Origin: an uncultured Erysipelotrichaceae bacterium
GTDB lineage: Bacteria > Bacillota_I > Bacilli_A > Erysipelotrichales > Erysipelotrichaceae
DNA: 32,000 nucleotides
Assembly: GCA_942493105.1 (NCBI GenBank)
Contig: OW818668.1
Location: 1,710,001 to 1,742,000, forward strand
Direction of reading: 5' to 3'
Under the pieces are notes generated by a model. The model did not search any database. It was not told the origin of the DNA and worked only from the letters and a program-made list of their open reading frames with translations. Made by a program: the position numbers and the translations under genes. Position 1 is the first letter of the stretch. Every line of letters begins with the position of its first letter. Positions 1,416 through 32,000 of this stretch are shown piece by piece.

Positions 1416-2051
1416 TCATTCATCATGCAGATTATGTACAGAATACTCACACCCACAGTACTCTTGACGATAGATCCCTAGCCCTTTTGATACGTTGACA
1501 CTAAAATCAATGCCTTTGTTTTTCTTGAAGTTGGAATAAAAGTATTGGACTTTAGGATAACCACTGGCCAATCGTCTTGCGATCTCATTTATTTTGTTCG
1601 CACTTTTTTGTCTAGAGATCGTCATCACTGTCGTGACATAATCAAAACCATTCGCCGAAGCATAATTGAGGGCTTCTGTGATTCGTAATGCATAACACAT
1701 TCCACAGCGTTGTGAGCCTTCTTTATCTTGGGCTCGTTTTAACAGATAGGTCGTATGATAATTTTCATAGTCATAAGGCTGAGCTATGATTGAAATCTCT
1801 GTGTCATGTTTTTCATTGAAAAGCGTTACATATTTTTCGAGTTCACTTAAGCGATGATCATATTCGGACTGAGGATAAATATTGGAATTATTGTAGTAAA
1901 GGGTAATATTAAAATAAGGAGCCAAATATTCAAGCGGCCAACTATTACATACAGCACAGCAAGAATGCATCAAAAGACTTGGTTTCTTTTCAAGCAATTT
2001 TATCTCATTCAATTTTTCGATTTCCCAATGATGATCTGTTCTTTTGTTCAT
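1416..2051 (-). CDS. queH: epoxyqueuosine reductase QueH (DUF208 type, B12-independent)
   Basis: 211 aa. [18 protein letters not shown] near the N-terminus and a C-terminal EYCGCEYS cysteine cluster are characteristic of QueH. The start overlaps the queA stop (ATGA). Confidence 0.85.
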
Positions 2052-3069
2052 TCGATAAACATGGCATCTCCAAAGGAGAAGAACCTGTATTTTAATTGTA
2101 CTGCTTTTTCATAGGCTTGTAAGATAAATTCACGATCTGCTAAAGCACTGACCAACATCACCAGAGTGCTTTTAGGTAGATGAAAGTTGGTAATTAAAGC
2201 ATCAACGGCTTTAAACTCATATCCTGGTGTGATAAAAATCTCAGTAGAGGATGTTTCTGCAATAAATCGACCATGTCGATTCGTCTGTGTTTCTAAAGTG
2301 CGGACACTGGTCGTTCCTACCGCAACGATCCTTCTGTGTTCAGATCGAGCTTGATTCAAAAGAGTGGCTGCTTCACTTGATACTTCATAGAATTCTTCAT
2401 GCATCTTGTGATGACTGACATCGTCTGCATCGACAGGTCTAAATGTTCCTAAACCTACATGTAAGGTTATCTTTATCAGTTCAATGCCTTTGTCTTCAAT
2501 TTGCTTCAATAATTCTGGGGTAAAATGAAGTCCTGCTGTTGGTGCTGCTGCAGAACCCAAATTTCTCGCATAAACAGTCTGATACCGTTCAGGATCTTCT
2601 AATCTTTCTTTGATGTAGGGTGGTAAAGGCATGGTGCCTAATTTTGATAATAGTTCTAAAAAGATGCCTTGAGTGATGATTTTGAATCGACGCAAACCAC
2701 TTTCCCCTAATTCAATACATTCGAATTTAAGAATGCCTTCGCCAAAGTCAATGATCGTTCCTACTTTAACAGCCTTTGCTTTCTTTACGAGACACTCCAC
2801 TTCATTGTGTTCAATTTTCAAAATCAAACATTCGATATGGGCAAGGGTATCTTCTTTGATCCCAAATAAACGGGCAGGCATGACTCTGGATTCATTGACG
2901 ATCAATACATCACCTTTGTTTAAATGATCGATGATGTTGGTAAAGACTTCATGTTTAATGGTTCTATTTTTGCGATTTAAAACCATTAGGCGAGAAGCTG
3001 AACGATCGGCTAATGGATGTTGGGCAATGAGTTCTTCAGGAAGCTCAAAGTTAAAATCAGATGTTTTCA

Positions 3070-3070
<1 letters not shown>
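2048..3070 (-). CDS. queA: S-adenosylmethionine:tRNA ribosyltransferase-isomerase
   Basis: 340 aa. [20 protein letters not shown]...[19 protein letters not shown] and [12 protein letters not shown] match QueA signature blocks. Confidence 0.95.
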
Positions 3071-6028
<2,958 letters not shown>

Positions 6029-6330: not shown

Positions 6331-7593
6331 ATGAATAATCGCTTACTGCATACGGTTGAAGGATTAAGAGATTTACATCCCAAGGACACGGCTCAAAAAA
6401 ACGATCTTGGTAATGAAATACTAAAACAATTTTTTTCTTTTGGTTATGAACAAGTAGAAACTCCAACTTTTGAATATTTTGATATTTATCGGAATGAACG
6501 CGGAACTTCAGATGGAAAAAATCTATATAAGTTCTTTAATCGGGAGGGAGACATATTGGCACTTAGGCCAGACGTGACCCCCTCTATTGCGCGCTACATG
6601 GCCACTTTTTATTCAAATTCAAATTCTCCTCGACGCTTTTGTTACTTAGGAAATGTCTTTTACAATAATGAAAACTACCAAGGTAAATTGCGTGAATTTA
6701 CCCAAGCTGGGGTTGAGTGTATTGGATTTGCTGGTGCAGATGCTGATGCTGAATGTATAGCACTCTCTATTCAAAGTCTCTTGGCTACTGGATTAATCGA
6801 TTTTCAAATCGATATTGGACATGCAGGATTTTTTAATGGTTTAGCAGAAGAAGCAGGCTTTGATAATGAAACGCAAGAAATCGTAAGACGATTGATCGAT
6901 GAAAAAAATCATGTTGCCTTAGAACAATATCTCAATCAACTACAAATCAACGAATCAACAAGAAATGGATTATTGATCCTACCTACCCTTTTTGGTCAAG
7001 AAGAAATTCTTGAACGAGCAACCGCATTAACTCATAACGAAGTTGCCAATCTAGCCATCCTTCGACTAAAAGAAGTGGTATCAATCTTAAAAGAATATTC
7101 ATTGGATCAATATATATCTTTTGATTTAGGAATGGTCAGTAAACTTCAGTATTATACAGGGCTTATTTTTAAGGGATACACCTATGATGCGGGAGATAGT
7201 ATTGTTGATGGTGGTCGTTATGATAATTTACTAGGTACTTTTTCACATCAAGCCCCTGCTGTTGGATTTGCTGTAAAAGTAGATGAAGTCTTGAGTGCTT
7301 TGGCTCGTCAGAATTTTGACATTGAGGTGGCAAAAGTCAACCTATTAATAATCTATGATGAATTAAAGCGAAAAACTGCTATACAACTCGCCCAAAATCT
7401 TAGGAAACGCAAGATGAGCGTAGAGCTTGCTAAGAAAGAATTACAGGATGAAGACTTCATACTTTACGGAAAAGAAAAAGAGATTGAGAAAATGATGTTT
7501 ATTGAAGATGAGGATACAGCTGTGATGATCAACCTATTGTCTGATGAACGTACCCTTGTAAAACTTTCAGACATCCTAGAAAGAGGCCTATAA
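6331..7593 (+). CDS. hisZ: ATP phosphoribosyltransferase regulatory subunit (HisRS paralogue)
   Basis: 420 aa. GLRDLHP, the LRPDVTPSIARY block (HisZ-type rather than the HisS RPEGTA) and GGRYDNL are present. It sits directly before a short-form hisG (TAA then ATG, no gap). Confidence 0.85.
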   Translation: MNNRLLHTVEGLRDLHPKDTAQKNDLGNEILKQFFSFGYEQVETPTFEYFDIYRNERGTSDGKNLYKFFNREGDILALRPDVTPSIARYMATFYSNSNSPRRFCYLGNVFYNNENYQGKLREFTQAGVECIGFAGADADAECIALSIQSLLATGLIDFQIDIGHAGFFNGLAEEAGFDNETQEIVRRLIDEKNHVALEQYLNQLQINESTRNGLLILPTLFGQEEILERATALTHNEVANLAILRLKEVVSILKEYSLDQYISFDLGMVSKLQYYTGLIFKGYTYDAGDSIVDGGRYDNLLGTFSHQAPAVGFAVKVDEVLSALARQNFDIEVAKVNLLIIYDELKRKTAIQLAQNLRKRKMSVELAKKELQDEDFILYGKEKEIEKMMFIEDEDTAVMINLLSDERTLVKLSDILERGL

Positions 7594-8232
7594 ATGCGCT
7601 ATTTAACGTTTGCCTTAGCGAAAGGTCGCTTGGCCACACAAGCTTTAAAATTACTAGAAAAACAAGGTATCACTTGTGAAGAGATGTATACAGAATCTCG
7701 CAAATTGATTTTTGTTAATGAAGAATTGAAATTGAAATTCTTCCTTGCTAAAGCCAATGATGTCCCCACTTATGTTGAATATGGGGCTGCGGATATCGGG
7801 ATCGTTGGTAAAGATACCTTGCTTGAAGAACGTCGTAACTTATTTGAGGTCGTTGATTTAGGTTTTGGTAAATGCAATATGGTTGTTGCTGGACTTGCCA
7901 GTATGCAAGAAACACTAAAAAACAATAACCATATCCGTGTTGCGACCAAGTATCCCAATATTGCTAAAGATTACTTTTACAACAAGAAAAATCAAAAAGT
8001 TGAAATCATTAAGTTAAATGGCTCAATTGAATTAGCTCCATTAGTCGGTCTTTCAGACGTCATTGTCGATATCGTAGAAACCGGATCGACATTAAAGGAA
8101 AATGGCTTGGTTGTTTTAGAAACAATTTGTCCTCTATCTGCAAGAATGGTAGTCAACCGAGTCAGCATGAAAATGGAAAGTGAACGGATCAACAACATTA
8201 TCCAAGGACTTAGAGAAAGGATCTCTCAATGA
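7594..8232 (+). CDS. hisG: ATP phosphoribosyltransferase, short (HisZ-dependent) form
   Basis: 212 aa. [29 protein letters not shown] and [14 protein letters not shown] are present. Confidence 0.95.
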
Positions 8233-9539
8233 AATTTTATGACTTGCGGAATTCAATGGATCTTTCCATTGGTGATTTCCTAAAAAACAGAGAACAAACA
8301 TCTTATGAATCTTATGAGAAAATCGTTGATTCTATTCTTTTGTCTATAAAAGAAAAAGGTAATGAAGCACTTATTGCTTTGACAGCCAAATATGACCAGG
8401 TGACTTTAACGCCTGAAACTCTTTGTGTAAGCGAAGATGAAATACGAGAAGCTTATACTTTAGTAGATGAAAATCTGATTCGAGTGATTCGTCGCGCCTA
8501 TGCTCAAATCTATCAATATCATGTTAAGCAAAAAACTTATTCATGGTTTGATACAGATACTTACGGTATCATGCAAGGTCAAAAAGTAACACCACTGGAT
8601 CGAATTGGAGTCTATGTTCCAGGAGGAACTGCTGTATATCCTTCGAGTGTGTTGATGAATGTTATTCCGGCGCAAGTGGCTGGTGTAGTTGAAATCATCA
8701 TGACAACCCCTATGCAAAAAAACGGAAAAGTTAATCCAGCGACCTTGGTCGCTGCCGATATTTGTGGAATCAAAGAAATCTATAAAGTAGGTGGAGCCCA
8801 AGCAATCGGTGCTCTGGCTTATGGAACTCAAACACTTCGTAAGGTAGATAAGATAGTTGGACCAGGCAACATTTATGTGGCTCTAGCGAAGAAGAAAGTC
8901 TATGGCTTGGTTAGCATTGATTCTATTGCGGGACCTTCAGAAATCTTGGTGATTGCCGATGATTCTGCACGACTTGATTATGTTGCGGCAGATCTATTAT
9001 CACAAGCTGAGCATGATGTACTTGCAAGTGCAGTCCTTATTACTACTGATGAAACCTTGGCTTTCTCGATTGAAGCAGAGCTTATCCGCCAAACCAAATT
9101 GCTTAGTCGATCTTCAATCATAAAACAATCTCTTGAAAACTATGGAGCCATCATTCTAGTCAAGACGCTTGAAGATGCTATTGATTTAACCAATCAAATA
9201 GCCCCAGAACATTTAGAAATCTGTACAAAAGAACCTGTTATGGTGATGAATAAAATCAAACATGCAGGTGCCATCTTTTTAGGAAATTATTCTCCTGAAC
9301 CATTGGGAGATTATATGGCAGGTCCAAATCACATTTTACCCACCAATGGTACTGCTAAGTTTTTCTCACCGTTGAGCGTCGAAGATTTCGTTAAAAAAAG
9401 CAGCATCATCTATTATAACGATCAAGCTTTATATGCCTTAAAAGATGACATTATTACCTTTGCGAATGCTGAAGAATTGACAGCTCATGCATCAGCCATT
9501 CAAATACGCTTTCCTAAAGAAAGTGAGGAAGTGATATGA
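8229..9539 (+). CDS. hisD: histidinol dehydrogenase
   Basis: 436 aa. [34 protein letters not shown] and APEHLE blocks are present. ATGA overlap with hisG. Confidence 0.95.
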
Positions 9540-10597
9540 ATCGATATGCTCGGATCGATCTTCAAAATTTCAAGCCTTATCATGCATCACCCAAGCCTTA
9601 TGAAATCAAGTGTGATGCCAATGAAATGCCCTTTGAGCATCAAAAGGAGTTCGTTGAACATATGGCAAAATGGATGTCTGAAAAAGATAATCTCACAAGG
9701 TATCCAGATACAGATTGCATCCAGCTTCGCGAAAAAATTGCGGAGGTCATAAATGTCACAAAAGAAAATATTCTTTGCGGAGTAGGCTCTGATCAAATCA
9801 TTGAGTTGATTATAAAAGTATTTCTTGAACCTGGCGACTCTGTGGTAATGCCGACCCCCTCCTTCAGTATGTATCCATTATCTACAATATTAAATCGCGG
9901 AAAAGCCATTGAAGTACCACTAGATCAAGACTTCAATTATGACATCGACAAAATGATCCAGATCATTCAAGATGTTAAACCAAAACTAGTCTTCTTGTGT
10001 ACACCAAACAATCCAACCGGCTGTCTGCTGTCCTCTGAAGACATCAAACGTATTCTGAAGATCGCTGATTGTCCCGTTGTTGTGGATGAAGCCTATGCTG
10101 AATTTACACAAGAATCGATGATTGAGGATCTTATGGACTACCCAGATTTAATTATTTTAAGAACCTTCTCTAAATCATATGGGTTGGCTGGATTAAGATC
10201 AGGTTATGCCATTGCACATCCTGATATGATTGAGACCATTAATCTGGTCAAGCCTCCTTACAATGTGTCGAGCTATGCTCAAGAAGCATCCTTCTTTGTA
10301 CTAGAACATAAAGCTTATTACGATGACATGGTAAAAAAGAGTATTCAACAACGTGATTGGCTCAAGAATGAGTTACAAGCCTTTGATGTTGTAGAAAGAG
10401 TATATGAAAGTCATGCGAATTTCATTCTTGTACGATTAAAACAAGATTCGATTGCTGAAGCACTTTATCAGCAAAAGATTCTTGTAAGAGATTATCCCCC
10501 TACTGGACCACTTGCTCATTGCATTAGGATTACCGTAGGAACCGAAACAGAAAACAAAAGAATCATAAACGCACTAAAGGAGGCAACCCATGAATAA
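9536..10597 (+). CDS. hisC: histidinol-phosphate aminotransferase
   Basis: 353 aa. NPTG, the VVDEAYAEF motif and the PLP-lysine motif TFSKSYGLAGLRSGY are present. ATGA overlap with hisD. Confidence 0.9.
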   Translation: MNRYARIDLQNFKPYHASPKPYEIKCDANEMPFEHQKEFVEHMAKWMSEKDNLTRYPDTDCIQLREKIAEVINVTKENILCGVGSDQIIELIIKVFLEPGDSVVMPTPSFSMYPLSTILNRGKAIEVPLDQDFNYDIDKMIQIIQDVKPKLVFLCTPNNPTGCLLSSEDIKRILKIADCPVVVDEAYAEFTQESMIEDLMDYPDLIILRTFSKSYGLAGLRSGYAIAHPDMIETINLVKPPYNVSSYAQEASFFVLEHKAYYDDMVKKSIQQRDWLKNELQAFDVVERVYESHANFILVRLKQDSIAEALYQQKILVRDYPPTGPLAHCIRITVGTETENKRIINALKEATHE

Positions 10598-11186
10598 GGT
10601 TCGTCAAGCAACAAAAGAACGTAAATCAAAAGAAACATCCATTCGTATATCCGTCAATCTAGATGGAACTGGTGTTTCAACAATCTCAACAGGCATAGGA
10701 TTTTTCGATCATATGCTCACCCTTTTATCAAAATACAGCTTTATTGATATGAGCATAGAGGCTCAAGGCGATCTGCAGATTGATTCACATCACACTGTTG
10801 AAGATGTTGCGATCGTGTTGGGTGATTGTCTTGATGAAGCTTTTAAAGATAAAGCAGGTATTAAAAGATATGGTTTCTTTGGGGTTCCAATGGATGAGAC
10901 TCTCGTTATCAGTACCATTGATTTATCCGGAAGACCTTATCTAAATTTCAATGCATCATTCACGACAGATCGACTAGGAACGATGGAATCAGAAATGATT
11001 GAAGAATTCTTTAGGACCCTTAGTGTTCGACTTAAAATGAATTGTCATATTGAAGTTCGCCAAGGTAAAAATAACCATCATATCGCAGAAGGAATATTTA
11101 AAGCCTTTGGGAAATCGTTAGATGAGGCAAAAACCATTGATCCAAGAATCAAAGAAGTGCTTTCCACAAAAGGGTTGTTAGACTAA
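10590..11186 (+). CDS. hisB: imidazoleglycerol-phosphate dehydratase (monofunctional; no phosphatase domain)
   Basis: 198 aa. GIGFFDHMLT, DSHHTVEDVAI and NNHHIAEGIFKAFG are present. 8-nt overlap with hisC. Confidence 0.95.
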   Translation: MNKVRQATKERKSKETSIRISVNLDGTGVSTISTGIGFFDHMLTLLSKYSFIDMSIEAQGDLQIDSHHTVEDVAIVLGDCLDEAFKDKAGIKRYGFFGVPMDETLVISTIDLSGRPYLNFNASFTTDRLGTMESEMIEEFFRTLSVRLKMNCHIEVRQGKNNHHIAEGIFKAFGKSLDEAKTIDPRIKEVLSTKGLLD

Positions 11187-11204
11187 AACAAAGGAGCTAC
11201 GAAG

Positions 11205-11804
11205 ATGATCGGTATTATTGACTATGGGATGGGGAATCTGAAAAGCGTATCCAATGCCCTAAATTTTCTAGGTGCACAACATTTTATAAGTGATGATTAT
11301 GATCTCCTCTTAACGGCTGACAAGCTCATATTGCCAGGCGTTGGTGCTTTTAAAGATGCCATCGATCTCATACGCAAAAAGAAATTCGATCAATTATTGA
11401 TAGAATCAAAGGCCCAAGGAAAACCGATATTGGGTATCTGTTTGGGTATGCAATTGCTTTTTGATACATCTACTGAATTCGGATTTCATCAAGGCCTTAG
11501 AATGCTGAAGGGACAGATTGTATTTATGGATGTGTCGTTGAAGGTTCCTCATATGGGATGGAATCGTTTAGATATTCATAAAGAATCCCCATTATTTGTT
11601 GGGTTACCTGAAAATAGCTATGTTTACTTCGTACATTCTTATCATTTAGAAACAACTGAAGATATTGTTTCAGCAACTACGAATTATGAAAAGGATATCC
11701 AAGTGGCGGTTCAGCAAGGAAATATATACGGCTTACAATTTCATCCTGAAAAGAGCGGTGATGTGGGTTTGAAGATCCTTAGAAATTTCATTGAATTGAG
11801 TTAG
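11205..11804 (+). CDS. hisH: imidazole glycerol phosphate synthase, glutaminase subunit
   Basis: 199 aa. IIDYGMGNL, LPGVGAF, the catalytic GICLGMQLL and FHPEKS are present. Confidence 0.95.
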   Translation: MIGIIDYGMGNLKSVSNALNFLGAQHFISDDYDLLLTADKLILPGVGAFKDAIDLIRKKKFDQLLIESKAQGKPILGICLGMQLLFDTSTEFGFHQGLRMLKGQIVFMDVSLKVPHMGWNRLDIHKESPLFVGLPENSYVYFVHSYHLETTEDIVSATTNYEKDIQVAVQQGNIYGLQFHPEKSGDVGLKILRNFIELS

Positions 11805-11813
11805 GAGACAAGT

Positions 11814-12539
11814 ATGCAACTATACCCTGCAATTGATATCAAGAATGGTAAATGTGTACGACTTTACAAGGGCTTGTTTAATCAAGAAACCATCTTTAGT
11901 GAGAGCCCTTTAGAGGTTGCAAAACAATGGGAACTAGATGGAGCGACTTATCTTCATATCATAGATTTAGATGGCGCACTCAACGGTGAATGGGTCAACA
12001 AAGCAGTATTTAGTGATATCTTAAAATCAGTAAAGATTCCTATACAAACAGGGGGTGGGATCAGAACCCTTGAAGATATTAAACAACGCCTAGAAATGGG
12101 CATAGATCGCGTCATAATAGGTACAATGGCCGTCAAGGATCCTGAATTTGTAAAAGAGGCCATCCAACACTTTGGTTCCGAACATATTGTGGTAGGTATC
12201 GATGCAAAAAACGGATGTGTTGCCACTCATGGTTGGGAGCAAGTTAGTACCCTTGAGGCAGCAGAATTTGCATTAGCCATGAAGCAGTTGGGCGTCAAGT
12301 ATATTATCTACACAGACATAAGCAAAGATGGAACGATGGAAGGTCCTAATATTGAGCAAACACAAAATCTGATAATTAAAACCGGAATGAACATCATTGC
12401 CTCGGGTGGTATTTCAAGCATAGACGATCTGTATGAAACTCAGAGAATTGGGGCAACAGGAACCATCATTGGTAAAGCTTTATATTTAAATGCGATCCAT
12501 CTTAAAGAAGCGATTAAGCTGTTTGAAAGAGGTGAATAA
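11814..12539 (+). CDS. hisA: ProFAR isomerase
   Basis: 241 aa. LYPAIDIKNGKCVRL, LHIIDLDGA and GGGIRT are present. Confidence 0.95.
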   Translation: MQLYPAIDIKNGKCVRLYKGLFNQETIFSESPLEVAKQWELDGATYLHIIDLDGALNGEWVNKAVFSDILKSVKIPIQTGGGIRTLEDIKQRLEMGIDRVIIGTMAVKDPEFVKEAIQHFGSEHIVVGIDAKNGCVATHGWEQVSTLEAAEFALAMKQLGVKYIIYTDISKDGTMEGPNIEQTQNLIIKTGMNIIASGGISSIDDLYETQRIGATGTIIGKALYLNAIHLKEAIKLFERGE

Positions 12540-13304
12540 ATGTTATCTAAACGAATTATTCCATGTTTGGATGTAGATAAAGGTCGTGTTGTAAAGGGTG
12601 TCCAATTTGTAGATCTGATCGATGCTGGTGATCCGGTAGAAGTTGCTAAAGCCTACAATAAAAGTCTGGCTGATGAGATCATCTTTCTGGATATTACTGC
12701 TTCTCATGAGCAACGTGGAACGATCCTTGATATCGTTAGAAAAACTGCTGCAGAAGTATTTATTCCCTTGACTGTAGGTGGTGGTATCAGAACCATTGAA
12801 GACATTCGAAATATACTGTTAGCAGGTGCAGATAAGGTATCAATCAATTCTGCTGCAATTGCACGACCAGCATTGATCAATGAAGCATCTCAACGATTTG
12901 GTTCACAATGTATCGTTGTTGCGATTGATGCCAAGTTCAATAAGGAACGTAAAAGTTGGGATGTATATTCTCATGGGGGAAGAAACAATCAAGCACTAGA
13001 TGCCATAGAATGGGCTATTGAAGCAGAAAAACGAGGTGCTGGAGAAATTCTTTTGACCAGTATGGATAAGGATGGGACAAAGTCTGGTTATGATAATGAA
13101 TTGATACGATGCGTAAGTGAAGCTGTAAGAATTCCTGTGATCGCAAGTGGTGGTGCTGGGACACTTGAACACTTCAAAGATGCAATAATCAAAGGTAAAG
13201 CAGATGCTGTTCTTGCTGCCTCCCTATTTCATTTCAAAGAGATCGACATAAAAGATCTAAAAAATTATTTGAATGATGAAAACATACCTGTTAGGTTGAA
13301 ATAA
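12540..13304 (+). CDS. hisF: imidazole glycerol phosphate synthase, cyclase subunit
   Basis: 254 aa. [16 protein letters not shown] and IASGGAG are present. The ATG abuts the hisA TAA. Confidence 0.95.
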
Positions 13305-13326
13305 CTTCACTAGAAAGGAGATGAAT

Positions 13327-14013
13327 ATGAAATTTAGCGATTTAGTACAGAATCAAGCAGGATTAATTCCTGTCATTACACAAGATTTTAAAACCAATGA
13401 AGTACTTATGTTGGCCTATATGAATGAGGAAGCATTTAATCAGACTCTAAGGACAAAGAAAGCAACCTACTTTAGTCGTTCCAGAAATACACTTTGGATT
13501 AAAGGTGAAGAATCAGGTCATTATCAACATGTGAAGTCAGTTTTCGTAGATTGTGATAATGACACATTATTATTAAAAGTTAAACAAGAAGGTGTTGCCT
13601 GTCATACAGGTGAAATGTCATGTTTCTTCAATGAAATTGAGTTGGCAGAACCTCTTTTAGAATCACAAGGTAATGAATCCATCGACTCATCCAAATCAAG
13701 CAATGAAAAAGACTATACATTAACAAGCTCAGTCACATCTAAAGTACTCGATGAAGTGTATCAAGTTGTATTGGATCGCAGAAAGAACCCTAAAGAAGGC
13801 TCCTACACCAATTATCTCTTTGACAAAGGAATTGATAAGATCCTTAAAAAAGTAGGTGAAGAAACAGCTGAAGTCATTATTGGGGCTAAAAATGAAGGCA
13901 GTGATGAGATTATCTATGAGATATCTGATTTATTGTATCATTTGACTGTTCTTTTGGTCGAAAAAGAAAGCACATGGGAATCTGTATATAAAGAACTGGC
14001 TAAACGTAGATAG
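13327..14013 (+). CDS. hisI: bifunctional phosphoribosyl-AMP cyclohydrolase / phosphoribosyl-ATP pyrophosphatase
   Basis: HisI half: LIPVITQD...WIKGEESGH...[11 protein letters not shown]...[10 protein letters not shown]. HisE half: [31 protein letters not shown]...[10 protein letters not shown] Ser-rich linker of about 35 aa separates the two halves. The track start at 13321 has GGAG directly abutting it; the ATG at 13327 has 6-nt spacing and is preferred. Confidence 0.9.
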
Positions 14014-24307: not shown

Positions 24308-24829
24308 ATGAAAAAACAGTGGGCTTTTATTATAGCAATCATATTCTTAAGTGGCTGTCAATTCTCTAAGAAACCAAGTTTTAGTGCAGAATCCATCAAA
24401 ATCAATTCTTCCATTGAACAAATATCAGTCACTTTGAGCCGTTGTACAGATGGTGATACAGCTCATTTTATGATGGATGGAGATGATGTGAAAGTACGAT
24501 TCTTGTCGATAGATGCCCCTGAAATCGCCAATGATGATCATCCTAACCCTGAACCCTATGGAAACCAGGCACGTGATTATACCTGTAACCTACTGACCAA
24601 CGCAAAAACCATTACCATTCAAATGGATCCCTATGAAGATGATCACGATCAATATGATCGCCTATTGGCATGGATCTGGGTCGATGGACAACTTCTGCAA
24701 GCCAAATTGATTCAACAAGGCTATGCAGAAGTAAAGTATGTCAAACAGCCCAATCTTTATTCTAGTCAACTTTATCAGCTTCAAGATCTAATGAAAAATG
24801 AAAAAATAGGCATCTGGAAAAATAACTAG
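24308..24829 (+). CDS. lipoprotein thermonuclease (staphylococcal-nuclease fold)
   Basis: 173 aa. The signal peptide has the lipobox LSGC. SNase motifs CTDGDTAHF, VRFLSIDAPE and YDRLLAWIWVDG are present. Confidence 0.85.
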   Translation: MKKQWAFIIAIIFLSGCQFSKKPSFSAESIKINSSIEQISVTLSRCTDGDTAHFMMDGDDVKVRFLSIDAPEIANDDHPNPEPYGNQARDYTCNLLTNAKTITIQMDPYEDDHDQYDRLLAWIWVDGQLLQAKLIQQGYAEVKYVKQPNLYSSQLYQLQDLMKNEKIGIWKNN

Positions 24830-24834
24830 TTATA

Positions 24835-24864
24835 AAAAGCACTTTTGATAAAGTGCTTTTTTGT
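24835..24864. terminator. bidirectional rho-independent terminator between the nuclease gene and the glutamate mutase operon
   Basis: AAAAGCACTTT-tgat-AAAGTGCTTTT, with a T-run on the plus side (TTTTTTGTTT) and on the minus side (TTTTTATAAC). Confidence 0.8.
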
Positions 24865-25182
24865 TTAATAATCAAATTCGAGATCTAATAAAGGGGCGTG
24901 TTGTTGAGCACCATAAACATCGGTTTCACGGATATCTCCACTGCACATCGGTCTGATGATGGTGGCTTTTATGGCATTAGCAGGAACAAATTCAACGATG
25001 GTAATAACATCTTCAACTTTGATTTTATACAAAGATGCTATGAGTTCAGCGTTGATGCATTTGTGTTTGACTAAGGCATCAAAGGTTGCTTTGTCTTTTA
25101 GGATAATGTCAAAGGTGATCTCGTATGGTCCTGAATTCTTAGAACGGATGACTTTGGCGATATCGATCAGTTTATGTTTCAT
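24865..25182 (-). CDS. DUF4387-like small protein (C-terminal module of AtuA-type proteins)
   Basis: The preferred start is MKHKLIDIAKVIRSKNSGPYEITFDIIL (ATG 25180-25182, AAGGAG 6 nt upstream), giving 105 aa. The track start 25245 would overlap the upstream gene by 53 nt. Family assignment is from memory of the DUF1446/DUF4387 gene pairing and is not verified. Confidence 0.6.
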   Translation of the reverse strand: MKHKLIDIAKVIRSKNSGPYEITFDIILKDKATFDALVKHKCINAELIASLYKIKVEDVITIVEFVPANAIKATIIRPMCSGDIRETDVYGAQQHAPLLDLEFDY

Positions 25183-25192
25183 GAGTGGCTCC

Positions 25193-26545
25193 TTACACAT
25201 TGACCATGGTTTGTTTGAATATACCCACTGGATCTGTGATTTCAATCAAATGATACAGACTAAAATTATAAACAGCTCCTACTTTAAAATCGCTTGGTGA
25301 ATATGGAAAGGCAAGATTGCCTGCTGTTGCGATACGTCCTTCATAGCCATAATGAAGCATCGTACTTCTGGCAAAACTACAAATTGTGTTTGCCACATCT
25401 TGTGTTTTCGCGACCGCATCGATCACCACACAGAGCTCATGAGATTTGATGTCTTTGACAGGTTCAAGATCTCCCATGACCCCATTCTTCCCATAGATTT
25501 TGAAGTTGAGGTGATAGTTATCGAGATTCTTGAAGTTATCTTTGACTCTTTTTGTGACCCCATCTAGAATCGAATCAATTTCTTTGATGAAGATCGGATC
25601 ACGAACCCCAGCGATACTCACAGTTCTAAATCCAACGCATTTGGCAGCTTCTAGTTTGATCGTATAAGGATTTGCCGGAATGAATTTGCTTCCTCTTACT
25701 TCAACTTGATTTTCGTTGAGTTGAGTAAAAGTAGTTTGATGAAGATCGATGGTTCCGCCTGGTCCTGGCAAGATATAAGGATTTGTCTTTTCGTATAAAG
25801 TATGGGCACTGACACTCAAAGTCGTACATTTGCGAGCTGGATTTAAGGTTTCTAAGACAAAACGATCTTCATAGATGGTTCCAAACATACAATCACTTCC
25901 ACTGCCTGGTGCTGAAGCAATGGCTGCACATTCAAGTATTTTACCCATATGCAGTGCCAGACCTTGATCAAAACCACGAATGATCGGTAAAGCTGCAAAC
26001 ATATTGGGATCATAAGAGCGTCCCGCAATAATGACCTGAGCACCATCATTCAGAGCCTTTATGAAAGGCTCAACTCCCATTTGACCCACAATATGAGTCG
26101 ATTCTAAAATGTCTTCTCTGGTACATTCTGGGGCTGGATGAAGGGGTTTGACTTTGCCTTCTTCAAAAGCTTTTAAGACATATTCTTTATCGAAATCAGC
26201 CTCGATCACAGCCATTTTAAAGTGCAGATGATGTTCCTTAGCGATTTCATATACGATCTGAAGTTGCCAATCCAGATGAGGTTTGGCTCCGCTTCCTCCG
26301 GCACTGCCTACTAATACTGGAATATTATGTTCGATCCCGGCTTCAATCATGATGGCCAAGTCGCGTTTCACGGCGAAATAATCGGTAAAAGAAACACCTG
26401 CTCCTAAATAATAAGGCCCTGGATCCGTAGAACCAGCATCTACTGCGATACAGTCCGGTTTCAGTTTCATCCCTTCTTCAAAACTGGACATTGGGAAACC
26501 ATAACCTAAGATCGCTGTCGTAGAAAGAACTTTAACGCATTTCAT
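25193..26545 (-). CDS. DUF1446 / AtuA-family protein (acyclic-terpene-utilisation AtuA N-terminal module), function unknown
   Basis: 450 aa. VLSTTAILGYGFP...AVDAGSTDPGPYYLG...VGSAGGSG resembles DUF1446 as I recall it. The start overlaps the mal stop by 14 nt. Confidence 0.65.
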   Translation of the reverse strand: MKCVKVLSTTAILGYGFPMSSFEEGMKLKPDCIAVDAGSTDPGPYYLGAGVSFTDYFAVKRDLAIMIEAGIEHNIPVLVGSAGGSGAKPHLDWQLQIVYEIAKEHHLHFKMAVIEADFDKEYVLKAFEEGKVKPLHPAPECTREDILESTHIVGQMGVEPFIKALNDGAQVIIAGRSYDPNMFAALPIIRGFDQGLALHMGKILECAAIASAPGSGSDCMFGTIYEDRFVLETLNPARKCTTLSVSAHTLYEKTNPYILPGPGGTIDLHQTTFTQLNENQVEVRGSKFIPANPYTIKLEAAKCVGFRTVSIAGVRDPIFIKEIDSILDGVTKRVKDNFKNLDNYHLNFKIYGKNGVMGDLEPVKDIKSHELCVVIDAVAKTQDVANTICSFARSTMLHYGYEGRIATAGNLAFPYSPSDFKVGAVYNFSLYHLIEITDPVGIFKQTMVNV

Positions 26546-27797
26546 GAGTTGTCTTGCCTTTCATCGCTTGATTAAGCGCGATTATTCTTTGCATTTCATT
26601 GTAGACGATCATATACCCTTCATCGACTCCCATGCCTGGTTTTGCCAAGATCTGTACGGGATGTGTAGCCATTGCGATATGGACGCAGGTCTTGGCGCTG
26701 ATGTCTGTTTCATTACAGGTACCGCCTTGATATGCTCCAATACCTTTCTGATTACAATAAAGCACTGCTTCGATCGTATTTTGAATTCCGCCTAAATCAG
26801 GCGTCTTGATTTGAACCATATGACCTGCTTTGTTGTCAGCGAAATAGATGATGTCTTCCAACGTATTGCACCATTCATCAGCTACGATTTCTACATCGAT
26901 GTGACGTCGATCAAGCACTTCAGTGATGGCTTTAAGACCCAGCATGGTCAACTCACGATCGTCAAAATCGACAGGTCCTTCAATTCGCAAATGATAAGGA
27001 CCACTGGCTTCACGCAACAACTTCATATAATCAGCCATGGCTTCATAATCGGTTTTAAAGATGATCCCAAAAGTACCATAAACATCGATATGAAATACAG
27101 GCATATAGTCCTCTTGGCTCTTAAAAGTATCGACTCGATGACGCAACCATTTGACATATTCTAAGAGTTTTTCACCTTGATAACCTAATTTAGCAGCCAC
27201 ATTATTGATGAGTGCATGCGGCATGACAGCTGATCCTTTGATGATCATTTTATCGACATTGTCATAACGATTATCACCACTTTGACTAAAGATCGGAATC
27301 AGTTTGTCACTAACTTGAGTACCGTATTCTAAGGCAACGATATTGGCCATTTGGGTATGGTGTGCTTTTGCGACCGCATCTAGTAAAGCTTGGGTGATCC
27401 CATAACGTAAGGCTGTATGAATTCTTTTGCCTTCATGATGATAGTTATCAAATTCATGTGCTAATGTTTTAAAAGATTTAAGCTCTCTGCCTAAGAGTAA
27501 AGGTTTAAGCTCTTGTTGAACGATGAGTTCAAATTCTTGAGCTAAGAAGAGAGGATCTCTTCCTCCGCAGCCGCTGTATTGAACGGCACAGCAATCTCCA
27601 TAAGCAACTTGACCATCCTCAAGAACCAACATGATGGTTAAAGATTCCCCTGCTTGACGGATGCGGGTGAAGCCTGGCGTGATGGGGTCTCCCACATAGA
27701 AATTGCCTTCTGATTTAGCGCCTTGTTTAATCGCTTTTTGATCATCAAAGAAGAAACCGGTTCTGCCTTGACTTGTGACTACATCGATTATTTTCAT
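26532..27797 (-). CDS. mal: 3-methylaspartate ammonia-lyase (methylaspartase)
   Basis: The conserved N-terminus is MKIIDVVTSQGRTGFFFDDQKAI (ATG 27795-27797). VLEDGQVAYGDCCAVQYSGCGGRDPLF, RYDNVDKMIIK, HLRIEGP, VQIKTPDLGG and GGTCNET are near-identical blocks to Clostridium tetanomorphum MAL as I remember it. Confidence 0.95.
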   Translation of the reverse strand: MKIIDVVTSQGRTGFFFDDQKAIKQGAKSEGNFYVGDPITPGFTRIRQAGESLTIMLVLEDGQVAYGDCCAVQYSGCGGRDPLFLAQEFELIVQQELKPLLLGRELKSFKTLAHEFDNYHHEGKRIHTALRYGITQALLDAVAKAHHTQMANIVALEYGTQVSDKLIPIFSQSGDNRYDNVDKMIIKGSAVMPHALINNVAAKLGYQGEKLLEYVKWLRHRVDTFKSQEDYMPVFHIDVYGTFGIIFKTDYEAMADYMKLLREASGPYHLRIEGPVDFDDRELTMLGLKAITEVLDRRHIDVEIVADEWCNTLEDIIYFADNKAGHMVQIKTPDLGGIQNTIEAVLYCNQKGIGAYQGGTCNETDISAKTCVHIAMATHPVQILAKPGMGVDEGYMIVYNEMQRIIALNQAMKGKTTHEMR

Positions 27798-27804
27798 AGT
27801 GTCC

Positions 27805-29250
27805 CTATCTTGGTCGTCCGACCAATTGTCCTTTACTGACCGCATAAATATCATCAATTACCATTTGGAAACTGACATCACGGCGTTCTGTTTCTGCCCG
27901 TTCTTTTAGTTTCTGACGATGAAATGCTTTTAGTGTTTCATCAAAAGGTAAGTTCCCAAAGTCAAGGAATCTTACAGCCCCATGATTGTCTCTGGCCGGT
28001 AATGCCTTGTTGGCATTACATTGTGCCGGAGCAAACGGAACATCGATCAGACCAGCCTCAAATCCACGCAAAGCACTTAATCCAAAATCATTGTTTCCAA
28101 GTTTCAAGACAGCTTCCATGATACAACGGGTTTCAGCTTCAATGATTTTCATTTCTTCTAAAATCATCGGACTTTCAATAGCCACTTGATCTTTAAGCAT
28201 GGCCGTCAATTGTTTGGTGGCTTTTAAACCATTAGAATTGGCTTCTGCGGTAGGTACTCCAAAGGCTTCATGAGGAGATTTAACGATGACTTTTGTGGCA
28301 CCAGCCAGAACGGCTGTTGCGGCACCCCAAGCAATAACGGCATAAGCCTTAGCTTCATCTTGAGGAAAGCCTCCCATCCATTGATGAAAGACCGTTGTAA
28401 TACGGACATCTGTATATCCAAAACGATCTAGATAGGCTTTGGTTAGCTTTTCGAGGGTCTTTATGGCTGCGATATCCTGAATTTGATTCCCACATTGGCC
28501 ATACCCAACTGTAATGCATTTACAGCCCTGTTGAGCTGCCAACAATGCTTCTAAGATCGCAACTGAATGAGAAATACATGGGGGAACTAACGTTCCTGTC
28601 AAAGGCCCAAAGGGTTCACGATTGATTCTGATGCCTTGTTCTTCGTAATAACCGACCAAGCGATCAACATATTGCCAATCTGTGATGGTCTTTTCAAGTG
28701 AATTGTTTTTACCATAAGGAATATTATAAGAAATCCCTCCACCTTCAAAGGATGTAAACCCACCAGCCAAAGTGATTTCAGCTAAAAGTCTGGCATCGGG
28801 TGTTCCATGACGAACCTGAACCGGAACATCCAAATATTCTACGACATCTCTACAAACAGAAACGCCATGATTGACAGCCGGAAAGCCATTGAGTAAGGAC
28901 TTTCCGATTCGGATACTTTCATCAATACCTGTTTGAGCTTCAACATAACGATTATGCCGCGTATAACTATCGATGGTCGTCGGCAAAAGATCAGCCCCAC
29001 CTTCATCTTGAAGCGTTTTCAGAAGTTTCTTGAGTTCATTAGGTAAGGCAACTCCAGCTCTTGGTTGAACCAAAGTAACCTTATCTTCAACTGCTTGACT
29101 TAAACGAGCACTAAACCTTTTTTCAGCTTTGATTGTTTTTTGATAAGCAACCGCTTCTTCAAGATTCACTTCTTTGCCTGTGATCCATTGATTGAGTACT
29201 TCTTGACGCAAAGCCAAGAAGGTTTCTAATGGCATCTTTTGATTGATCAT
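27805..29250 (-). CDS. glmE: glutamate mutase epsilon (catalytic) subunit
   Basis: 481 aa. [62 protein letters not shown] and [23 protein letters not shown] match clostridial GlmE/MutE. ATGA overlap with glmL. Confidence 0.95.
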
Positions 29251-30602
29251 ACGATTTTCTCCATGTTTCTTTTAAGTAAGCGAACCACAGTATCAGGATG
29301 GCGCGATGCCAACAAACCTAAACAACTGACCACATAGTGAGCATCAAGAACATATTCCAGTTTATTTGGACATAAAATCTCGGGATGTTCCGTTTTAGAT
29401 AAGGCATTCTTTAAGATTGACAAAGGATCCTGTGAATGTATTAATGGACCACCGATCCCAATCATGATTAGCACATCACGCAAGTCTTTTCCGGATTGAT
29501 AATAACTGACTCCCATTGGAGAATACGACGTCTCTAACCGTCCTGCATGTCTTTGTGTGGCAATATCCGTACACCAACTGGCTAAAATGGTATCTTTATC
29601 AGGATCAATGTCACAGTGGATATTGTCTTGAATCTGTTGAAGATAATCTCTCATTTCTTGATCACATTCAGGTTCATCTTTTTTTAAATCAGCAACATTA
29701 TGCGCACTGAATCGAACGCCTAGATCCCCTTCTACACTGCGTTTATCCAAAGGTTCCCTAAGACCTTTATATCCGACATTGTCTTTCAAAACAAAATGAG
29801 CATTCATACTATAGACATCCGTGGTTGCTCCACCAATATCAATGGCCATTAAATCGCCTATTCCAGGTTCATTAACTGTCCCTTTTGAAAGTAACTTTAG
29901 GGCTTCCATAACACTCATAGGGGTAGGCAAGACGATGTCATCGATGACAGAACTTAATTCAGATAAACCTTTTGCCTTAACGATGGTTTTAAGGAATAAT
30001 TCACGGATCAATTCACGACATTGATCCACCTGTAAGATCCCATACGTCGGCATCACATTTTCACACATGAGATAATCAATTTTAGCATTCTTAAAGATGG
30101 CAGCTATTTCATCTTGACACGACTTGTTTCCGGCATAAATCACTGGAAAGTTTGGAGATAAGGTCGCAATCATTTTAGCGTTATGAATCACCACATCAGA
30201 ATTGCCGCCATCTGTACCACCGCAAAGTAATAATATGTCACACTGAGCATTTTCAAGTTCTTTGAGTTCACGTTGATTCAGTTCAAATGAATATGAACCG
30301 ATAACTTTAGCACCAGCACTATAACACGCCAAAGTCGCAGCTTTTAGGGTCAAATCAGGCACCAAACCAATCGCAATCATCTTCAATCCACCTTTAGCTG
30401 AACTGCAAACTAAGGTTTGATCAATAGAAACATTATCTAAGATGTTCGCCATTTTATGTTTGACCCGTTCAAGTCCTATGGCGATATCTGTTGTTGCCGT
30501 TGTCAGATCACTGGCACTGGCTAATATTTCGTCACTTTGGGTATCAACAATACAACCTTTGGTATATGTCGATCCCACATCAAATAAAAGATAGGTCGGC
30601 AT
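29247..30602 (-). CDS. glmL: glutamate mutase accessory protein GlmL/MutL (ASKHA-fold putative reactivase/chaperone)
   Basis: 451 aa. The N-terminus [12 protein letters not shown] (phosphate-1 motif) and [11 protein letters not shown] (phosphate-2 motif) are present. Its position between glmS and glmE matches clostridia. Confidence 0.85.
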
Positions 30603-31019
30603 TTAGGCAGTGATCCCCAAATCATGTTTCAGATCTTCAATACCCTGATTGATGTCACTTCCAGGTGGATATACCCGATTAAATCCCATTGCAATATATT
30701 TCTCTTCTACAGGTTTAAAATCAGATTTGCCTATGACTAAATTACCGCCAACATACAATAAAACATCAGATAACCCAGCTTCTTTACAATAGTCACCAAA
30801 ACCTCGACAATCCAATTCTCCTTGTCCATATAAACTGGATACAAAAATAGCTCTCGCATTGGTTTCGATTGCAGCATCTACAAACTCCTTTTGTGAAACC
30901 ATGACACCTAAATTGACCACATTGAATCCAGCATGATCAAGTGCAAATTCAATGATACGATTTCCTACAGCATGGACATCGGCTCCAATGACCCCGATTA
31001 CAACCGTTACTTTTTCCAT
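30603..31019 (-). CDS. glmS: glutamate mutase sigma (B12-binding) subunit
   Basis: 138 aa. The base-off/His-on cobalamin motif DxHxxG (ADVHAVGN) is present, along with [15 protein letters not shown] and GFNRVYPPG. The match to C. tetanomorphum MutS is close. Confidence 0.95.
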
Positions 31020-31028
31020 GAACGCTCC

Positions 31029-31949
31029 TTAATCACCAAAGTGATTGATTTTATGAATATCTTGAATTGCATCTGATGAAACCATGCCTACCAACTCAAA
31101 ACATTGCTTCTGTGGATCAAAAACAAAATCATCCAAGAGATGGAAATTTTCAATTTGTTTGGTGGAATTCACATGAGTTCGAGGGCCAGTACAGTATTGG
31201 ATGATTTCACTTCCAATTTTGATATGTGTTGGATCCAAATAGCTGATGATCAAGTCTTGCTGAATAAGTGATTTGACTTTCTTTTCCAGGACACCTAAAG
31301 AAACTCTCGGTTTTTTATTGAAAGATAAGATGAATCCATGTTTAACATCCCCATGTCCATCACATAAAACTTGATACTCACTCTCTAAGATATGAACCAA
31401 TAAATCCTCAGCACTGTGAGCCATCCTCCGATATAACAACGATTTATACACCGTATTTTTGATGTCTGAAGGTTCAGGTCCAAATAAATTGGGTCGGGCT
31501 ACGATCACTTCTTCTCCTATCCCAATTAAAATATCTCCATTAATTCCCAGTTGTTCATAAACAGAATCAAAATGTTCGACGATCACACGTCTTTTTTCAC
31601 TCAATGCAGCCTTGATTGCATCGATCAACTCATAAGCTTGAGAGAAAGCCAATTCAAATCTCAAATCGATATGATAAGTATGCGCAATGAATTTGTGTTT
31701 TGAATGATCACGCATCAAAGGTGCAGGTCGTGTATTGATTCCATCATCATCGTTGGTCAATTCAAGACCGGGAAACATCCCTTTGATTAAAAGTGACTTG
31801 CCGCTTCCTGCATCGCCGATGATGCCGATCAATTTATCGGTCGGCAACAGATACATCTGTGAGATTTGATTCCCTAGATTTTGCATACGCTGACTTCCTC
31901 TAGGGGCAAAAAAGGTGGCATATCTTAATTGTTCAATACTTGGGCTCAT
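31029..31949 (-). CDS. uncharacterised P-loop NTPase with tRNA_SAD-like C-terminal half
   Basis: 306 aa. AAGGAG RBS (31958-31963) lies 8 nt upstream. Walker A is GIIGDAGSGKS (31794-31817) and a candidate Walker B is RRVIVEHFD. The C-terminal half contains AHSAEDLL and YCTGPRTHV (31170-31196), reminiscent of the HxxxH and CxGxH zinc motifs of the ThrRS/AlaRS second additional domain. It ends 9 nt upstream of glmS. Confidence 0.6.
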   Translation of the reverse strand: MSPSIEQLRYATFFAPRGSQRMQNLGNQISQMYLLPTDKLIGIIGDAGSGKSLLIKGMFPGLELTNDDDGINTRPAPLMRDHSKHKFIAHTYHIDLRFELAFSQAYELIDAIKAALSEKRRVIVEHFDSVYEQLGINGDILIGIGEEVIVARPNLFGPEPSDIKNTVYKSLLYRRMAHSAEDLLVHILESEYQVLCDGHGDVKHGFILSFNKKPRVSLGVLEKKVKSLIQQDLIISYLDPTHIKIGSEIIQYCTGPRTHVNSTKQIENFHLLDDFVFDPQKQCFELVGMVSSDAIQDIHKINHFGD

Positions 31950-32000
31950 GGATTAAACTCCTTAAGTTGATTTAGATAACGAAAAAACAAGAATGTTCTT

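Follow-up and report, generated by a model that had tools for sequence, protein, structure and literature searches.

An AtuA/DUF4387 Gene Pair in the Glutamate Mutase Operon of an Uncultured Erysipelotrichaceae Bacterium Probably Encodes a CmlAB-Type Citramalate Lyase

Organisation of the Operon

The DNA analysed here (hereafter, the window) is a stretch of 32,000 nucleotides from an uncultured Erysipelotrichaceae bacterium. Its minus strand carries an operon whose first gene visible in the window encodes P306, a conserved uncharacterised P-loop protein of 306 aa (31029..31949). This gene is followed by glmS, encoding the B12-binding subunit S of glutamate mutase (30603..31019; NF002612, 210 bits), glmL, encoding the glutamate mutase accessory protein (29247..30602; NF040745, 541.6 bits), glmE, encoding subunit E of glutamate (methylaspartate) mutase (27805..29250; TIGR01503, 732 bits), and mal, encoding methylaspartate ammonia-lyase (26532..27797; TIGR01502 equivalog, 572 bits). 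The NCBIfam assignments of these four genes, all of which lie upstream of cmlA, are at the equivalog level. The start codon of mal is probably the ATG at 27797 rather than the TTG at 27857; MAAL_N matches the ATG form of the protein from its first residue.

The operon ends with a pair of genes on the same strand, designated here cmlA and cmlB after the enzyme to which we assign them below. The gene cmlA (25193..26545) encodes a protein of 450 aa from the AtuA/DUF1446 family, the putative large subunit of citramalate lyase, and cmlB (24865..25182) encodes a DUF4387 protein of 105 aa, the putative small subunit. The raw sequence places the TAA stop codon of mal at 26534-26532 and the ATG of cmlA at 26545, so that the last 14 nt of mal are also the first 14 nt of cmlA (26532..26545, minus strand). 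An AAAGG motif is located 11 nt upstream of this ATG, and the overlap may plausibly serve translational coupling. The stop codon of cmlA (TAA at 25195-25193) is part of the junction TAAGGAG, in which the Shine-Dalgarno sequence AAGGAG for cmlB (25189..25194, minus strand) overlaps the stop; a 10-nt spacer, GGAGCCACTC, then leads to the ATG of cmlB at 25182. Pfam DUF4387 spans residues 5-102 of this ATG form. The ORF call also gives a longer 126-aa form of cmlB that starts with TTG at 25245.

Directly after cmlB, a bidirectional intrinsic terminator hairpin (24834..24861) ends both the operon and the convergent SNase gene (24308-24829). It has a 12-bp stem with A- and T-runs at either side and a predicted energy of -12.7 kcal/mol. 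Its fold has a z value of -5.1, and 0 of 200 shuffled sequences were as stable. The preliminary description of this locus had reported the overlap, the ribosome-binding motif over the cmlA stop and the terminator, and all three were read in the sequence as described. The overlap and the TAAGGAG junction would couple the translation of mal, cmlA and cmlB, and such tight packing of the genes may ensure coupled and balanced expression of both CmlAB subunits.

Identity of the Gene Pair

The Pfam analysis assigned CmlA to the AtuA family (PF07287, 79.8 bits against a cut-off of 22.8; a partial match with its best stretch at residues 240-396) and CmlB to DUF4387 (PF14330, 132.9 bits). These were the only Pfam families found in the two proteins, and neither of them contains a Fumerase or Fumerase_C domain.

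The sequences of the PDB were searched with both proteins, and each of them gave a single strong match, namely to chains A and B of entries 9ERQ and 9EVF. Residues 3-440 of CmlA aligned with residues 4-440 of 9ERQ_A (phmmer, E 9.6e-170; 59.5% identity), while CmlB aligned with 9ERQ_B over all its residues, 1-105 (E 2.3e-27; 45.7% identity). The identity to the solved proteins is thus moderate, but the alignments are full-length and free of large gaps, and the solved complex has the same composition as the window pair, i.e., an AtuA-like subunit of ~450 aa and a DUF4387 subunit of 105 aa. The depositors named chain A "Citramalate lyase, subunit A (cmlA)" and chain B "subunit B (cmlB)". The entry 9EVF, released on 2025-10-08, is entitled "Citramalate lyase - ADP - pyruvate complex".

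The preliminary description had suggested Foldseek for finding fold relatives, and this comparison, run with the large subunit, led to the same protein. The AF2 model of CmlA (pLDDT 86.8) was superimposed on 9EVF_A with a TM score of 0.93 (E 3.6e-63), and there was no other match in the PDB at E < 1e-3. In the model, an N-terminal alpha/beta domain (residues ~1-210) is followed by a middle part rich in beta structure and by beta-alpha-beta modules at the C-terminus. As the remaining matches were weak (E > 5e-3; the ferredoxin-like C-terminal part against the dimerisation domains of M20 peptidases and against PII-like proteins), the fold of CmlA yields no mechanistic analogy.

A conserved stretch of 191 nt, found by blastn against E. 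coli genomes, led us to the corresponding E. coli cluster. The protein encoded there between mal and the gene for the FumD mesaconase is 91.5% identical to 9ERQ_A, which indicates that the solved CmlAB is an enterobacterial enzyme. The motifs DAGSxDPGP, GGSG, GKILEC, HTLYEK, GPGG and AGNLAFP are conserved in the window CmlA, 9ERQ_A and the E. coli protein.

The reaction of citramalate lyase is taken here from the PDB depositors and from a preprint (2026) that uses the enzyme, the only report returned by our literature search for the primary biochemistry of CmlAB. In this preprint, the citramalate lyase of Raoultella planticola, from the Berg laboratory, was expressed as cmlAB; it is reported to cleave (S)-citramalate directly to pyruvate and acetate without CoA or ACP, and for its mesaconate-dependent growth an engineered E. 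coli strain required both FumA and Cml. Taken together, we consider it highly probable (about 0.85) that the window pair encodes both subunits of a citramalate lyase of the CmlAB type, and we infer that the enzyme of this Erysipelotrichaceae bacterium shares the activity of the solved one. Since the proteins are orthologs of those in 9ERQ and 9EVF, crystallised with pyruvate, the expected substrate is (S)-citramalate rather than mesaconate or methylaspartate.

Gene Neighbourhoods of CmlA Relatives

The conservation of the gene order was examined by scanning one genome per species, which gave 80 loci encoding relatives of CmlA with 63-97% identity. These belong to Erysipelotrichaceae, many Clostridia, Bacteroidota, Spirochaetes and Flexilinea. 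When only loci with sufficient flanking sequence were counted, mal was located directly upstream of cmlA on the same strand in 69 of 73 loci, cmlB directly downstream of it in 76 of 77, and the complete glmS-glmL-glmE-mal set was present in 57 of 61. The association of the pair with mal expected in the preliminary description is therefore borne out. A class I fumarase was encoded within 10 kb in 28 of the 80 loci. The clustering of neighbouring ORFs showed the fumarase alpha part (Pfam Fumerase) in 25 loci and the beta part (Fumerase_C) in 24; other frequent neighbours of cmlAB were P306 (52 loci), a GntR regulator and a corrinoid adenosyltransferase. Meanwhile, tblastn searches with the E. 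coli proteins (E <= 1e-3) detected no homologs of CitC, CitD, CitE, CitF, CitX or CitG in the window and 81 loci. CmlAB fills exactly the step that the absent classical citramalate lyase leaves missing.

In the closest relative (L001), CmlA is 97% identical to that of the window, and the locus is colinear with the window (83.9% nucleotide identity) up to position 32000. The operon of L001 reads fumA-fumB-malic enzyme-P306-glmS-glmL-glmE-mal-cmlA-cmlB. As the window ends 51 nt upstream of P306 and the colinearity reaches this edge, the canonical mesaconase seen in the relative is most probably encoded just outside the window. Genes for both fumarase alpha and beta are present in the same operon in L001, L003, L006, L008-L010, L014 and L015, while L011, L013 and L026 have no mesaconase at the position where L001 carries it.

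These data bear on the function proposed in the preliminary description, namely that the pair is a mesaconase non-orthologous to the canonical one, an isomerase or another enzyme acting directly on mesaconate or methylaspartate. The gene order speaks for such a role, as cmlAB follows mal immediately, with the 14-nt overlap, and the window itself has no mesaconase gene. However, the depositors of the solved ortholog call it citramalate lyase, and it binds pyruvate. A canonical mesaconase located elsewhere, which the preliminary description had itself listed as a refutation of its proposal, was found in the relatives as fumarase alpha and beta genes in their operons (L001 among them), and in the E. 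coli cluster as FumD, a proven mesaconase according to the literature. In addition, the use of mesaconate in the preprint depended on FumA as well as on Cml. A direct action of the pair on mesaconate or methylaspartate is thus largely refuted and very improbable. The preliminary description had placed the pair in the right pathway, that of methylaspartate, but at the wrong step, since citramalate cleavage comes one step after mesaconate.

The loci in which mal is missing upstream of cmlA in spite of an adequate flank are L040, L047, L057 and L063. In L040, cmlAB follows genes assigned by eye as a DctP/DctQ/DctM-like TRAP transporter, and fumarase and SdhABC-like genes are located nearby in L040, L047 and L049; in the latter, no mal was seen in an upstream sequence too short to judge. 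The context of L040, L047 and L049 is what would be expected if the enzyme used a C5-dicarboxylate that is imported and then hydrated, and it does not suit an enzyme acting on methylaspartate.

Relation to AtuA and the Conserved Core

As the preliminary description had stated, the AtuA and DUF4387 modules also occur fused. In the fused proteins, of 608-735 aa, the AtuA module is N-terminal and DUF4387 is C-terminal, and AtuA of Thauera (615 aa) is one of this size. No fusion occurred among the best 120 homologs of CmlB, all of them separate small proteins, and the fusions surfaced only in a library clustered at 50%. The fused proteins are 33-51% identical to CmlA and have about 59 invariant positions in common with it. 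The motifs that are invariant in CmlA, 9ERQ_A, the E. coli protein and the fused proteins are D36-x-G-S-x-D-x-G-P, G83-G-x-G, Q155-M-G-x-E-P, G175-R-x2-D-P, G201-K-x2-E-C, H248-x-L-Y-E, G261-P-G, K297-x-E299, R393, H398 and G409-N. This sharing suggests that the members of the family have one catalytic core in common.

The reaction of AtuA had been called undefined, which is roughly fair. In the literature AtuA was tentatively regarded as releasing acetate from a tertiary beta-hydroxy acid, and a review from 2014 gave this acetate-releasing step to LiuE instead. It is this tentative assignment, together with the Pfam family name, that would suggest a role of the window pair in acyclic terpene utilisation. 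Yet the window has no atu, liu, carboxylase or acyl-CoA genes, the match to the AtuA profile is weak and covers the protein partially, and the pair is split rather than fused. As the synteny with glm and mal is kept across several phyla, we regard a role of this type as refuted and hardly conceivable. AtuA belongs to the same Pfam families as CmlAB, and the acetate-release chemistry proposed for it is analogous; however, it is a single polypeptide of ~600 aa, its gene is part of an atu operon and its substrate would be a CoA ester, whereas the window pair is divided into 450 and 105 aa, is encoded in an operon for glutamate fermentation and would have a free dicarboxylate as its substrate.

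The ADP found in 9EVF together with pyruvate hints at a role of the nucleotide beyond the simple lyase description. One could imagine that CmlAB is nucleotide-dependent, with ATP activating a carboxylate of citramalate or a related C5-dicarboxylate, for example as an acyl phosphate, and that the net cleavage releasing free acetate is one part of the chemistry or needs a partner such as P306. The invariance of GGxG (83-86) and GPG (261-263) in both split and fused members, the wider motifs PGSGSD (213-218) and GPGG (261-264) within close CmlA homologs and the presence of the P-loop ATPase gene in 52 of 80 clusters are in line with this scheme. On the other hand, according to the preprint citramalate is cleaved directly, giving pyruvate and acetate, and heterologous expression of cmlAB by itself was enough in E. 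coli. P306 has no homolog in the E. coli cluster, and ADP may be no more than a structural or allosteric ligand. We consider such a nucleotide-dependent scheme quite unlikely.

The P306 Protein

In the 52 related clusters that contain it, the P306 gene is located before glmS or right after cmlB. The protein has about 3,700 homologs, all with placeholder names, and a search of the PDB gave no sequence relative. In its AF2 model (pLDDT 86.3), a TsaE/YjeE-like P-loop ATPase domain occurs together with the fold of the AlaX/AlaRS/ThrRS editing domain. P306 is missing from the E. coli cluster and from the cmlAB loci that show no mal (L040, L047, L049, L057 and L063). Its role in the pathway, if any, is accessory. 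Such a role is more likely to be tied to the glm/mal part of the pathway than to cmlAB. A 314-aa hypothetical protein encoded upstream of E. coli glmS was compared with P306 and is not its homolog.

A broader proposal would be that CmlAB uses its bound adenine nucleotide in catalysis or regulation and that P306 serves as a dedicated accessory or maintenance factor for CmlAB or for the B12-dependent mutase. We regard it as unlikely. If it were true, this would be a new system of an enzyme with its helper, and the role of AtuA in terpene catabolism would be clarified.

Discussion

According to the pathway that we propose, GlmS and GlmE, with the help of GlmL, would convert glutamate to 3-methylaspartate, from which Mal would release ammonia to give mesaconate. 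A mesaconase of the class I fumarase type, whose genes probably lie just past the upstream edge of the window, would then hydrate mesaconate to (S)-citramalate. In the last step of this glutamate fermentation, CmlAB would cleave (S)-citramalate to pyruvate and acetate, and this cleavage would not involve the acyl-carrier-protein thioester machinery of the classical CitDEF-type citramalate lyase.

The classical enzyme, known from glutamate fermentation clusters of the Clostridium tetanomorphum type, catalyses the same reaction at the same position of the pathway. It is composed of the acyl carrier protein CitD, CitE and CitF, and is accompanied by CitC, CitX and CitG. CmlAB has no sequence relationship to any of them, and unlike the clusters of the classical complex, the CmlAB loci contain no genes for an acyl carrier protein or for prosthetic-group biosynthesis. 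CmlAB is a non-orthologous replacement of the CitDEF-type complex. The mesaconases (FumD, MesAB), which belong to the same pathway and are encoded by neighbouring genes, are Fe-S hydro-lyases (Pfam Fumerase and Fumerase_C) unrelated to CmlAB in fold and family, and in the relatives of the window they are encoded separately.

The enterobacterial cmlAB genes, like those of the window, directly follow mal in a glmS-glmL-glmE-mal cluster. The two systems differ in their hosts, a Firmicute (Erysipelotrichaceae) in the case of the window and an enterobacterium in that of the solved CmlAB. The window genes also overlap or abut more tightly than those of the enterobacterial cluster, and their operon includes P306, which the E. 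coli cluster does not. In the relatives of the window the mesaconase is of the split alpha/beta type, whereas that of E. coli is the fused FumD.

The neighbourhood of mal and a DUF1446 gene was described by Kronen and Berg in 2015 (PMC4682846), who observed that it comes after mal in both E. coli O157:H7 and Dictyoglomus. In their study, E. coli cells were grown under conditions inducing citrate lyase, isocitrate lyase or the methylcitrate pathway, and the extracts showed no citramalate lyase activity; the authors described the fate of citramalate as "still unclear". CmlAB answers this question. The enzyme type itself is already known, as it was named in the PDB (9EVF, October 2025) and used in the 2026 preprint. 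The window adds one more ortholog and nothing new beyond it. The databases keep the DUF names, so the case is one of annotation lag, not of discovery. NCBIfam release 20 (June 2026) offers a model for neither subunit, and Pfam as well as the RefSeq records of E. coli still label the pair as AtuA family and DUF4387. Some records even name the large subunit "3-methylaspartate ammonia-lyase", a mislabel already remarked on by Kronen and Berg.

The assignment has several consequences. CmlAB closes the citramalate-cleavage gap of the methylaspartate pathway in many bacteria that have no CitDEF-type complex, and it is common among anaerobes of the gut and of sediments, namely Erysipelotrichaceae, Clostridia, Bacteroidota and Spirochaetes. 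In addition, the relationship within the family lends support to the earlier, tentative view of AtuA as a lyase that releases acetate. New annotations can be given to thousands of genes that now bear the names "AtuA family", "DUF4387" or, erroneously, "3-methylaspartate ammonia-lyase", and the fermentation of glutamate to acetate plus pyruvate becomes predictable from genomes.

The extent of the methylaspartate operon

In its visible part, the minus-strand operon of the window comprises P306, glmS, glmL, glmE, mal, cmlA and cmlB, the last two very probably encoding a CmlAB-type citramalate lyase. The longest open reading frame of mal opens at a TTG codon at position 27857 (minus strand), within glmE. 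As the shorter form starting from the ATG codon at 27797 on the same strand matches the Pfam domain MAAL_N from its first residue and lies 7 nt past the glmE stop codon, this ATG, not the TTG, is likely to be the start of mal.

At the 5' end of the operon, the closest related locus, L001, carries genes for a two-subunit class I fumarase (alpha, 295 aa; beta, 185 aa) and for a malic enzyme (392 aa) at its positions 1769-4421, 5' of P306 and in the same orientation, and this segment corresponds to the region just past window position 32000. The same co-oriented set precedes P306 in L003, L006, L008-L010, L014 and L015 as well, while different genes take its place in L011, L013 and L026. The operon is probably cut by the window edge at position 32000.

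P306 itself, the first visible gene of the operon (31029-31949, minus strand), encodes a protein of 306 aa with the Walker A motif GDAGSGKS and is kept adjacent to the glm-mal-cmlAB cluster in 52 of the 80 related loci. The homolog search returned about 3,700 homologs, all under placeholder names only; no passing match was obtained in Pfam and no sequence match in PDB. The AF2 model predicts a TsaE/YjeE-like ATPase domain joined to an AlaX/ThrRS editing-domain fold. The invariant residues include H93, D95, R97, E99, E125, H126, H178, E181, H199, D201, C253 and H259.

Elsewhere in the window, translations inspected by eye showed a complete histidine biosynthesis operon (hisZ-G-D-C-B-H-A-F-IE-like frames, 6331-14013, plus strand) and, at 1416-6028, queuosine genes (tgt- and queA-like) with a typA/bipA-like gene. 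These genes are unrelated to the cmlAB finding.

CmlAB homologs and related proteins in other genomes

The E. coli orthologs (8547-10231 of locus L081, from NZ_CP169399.1) still carry the RefSeq names 'acyclic terpene utilization AtuA family protein' and 'DUF4387 domain-containing protein'. In several database records (P0053 and P0072 among them), CmlA homologs are labelled '3-methylaspartate ammonia-lyase', which is a propagated mis-annotation.

Three records (P0329, P0253 and P0257) show unusual DUF4387 fusions of three architectures: AtuA-DUF4387 with a family III CoA-transferase (1096 aa), DUF4387 with an isochorismatase (336 aa) and DUF4387 with an alpha/beta hydrolase (367 aa). These fusion partners hint that other family members act on CoA esters or on different substrates.

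The Desulforamulus/Desulfotomaculum-type loci L040 (7069-21162), L047 and L049 contain cmlAB and lack glm and mal. All three have class I fumarase alpha/beta genes and, as assigned by eye, SdhCAB-like genes; in L040, cmlAB is directly preceded by genes for a DctP/DctQ/DctM-like TRAP transporter and followed by a PckA-like gene (both also assigned by eye). Such gene sets suggest that mesaconate, citramalate or methylsuccinate, as a C5-dicarboxylate of external origin, is used via CmlAB.
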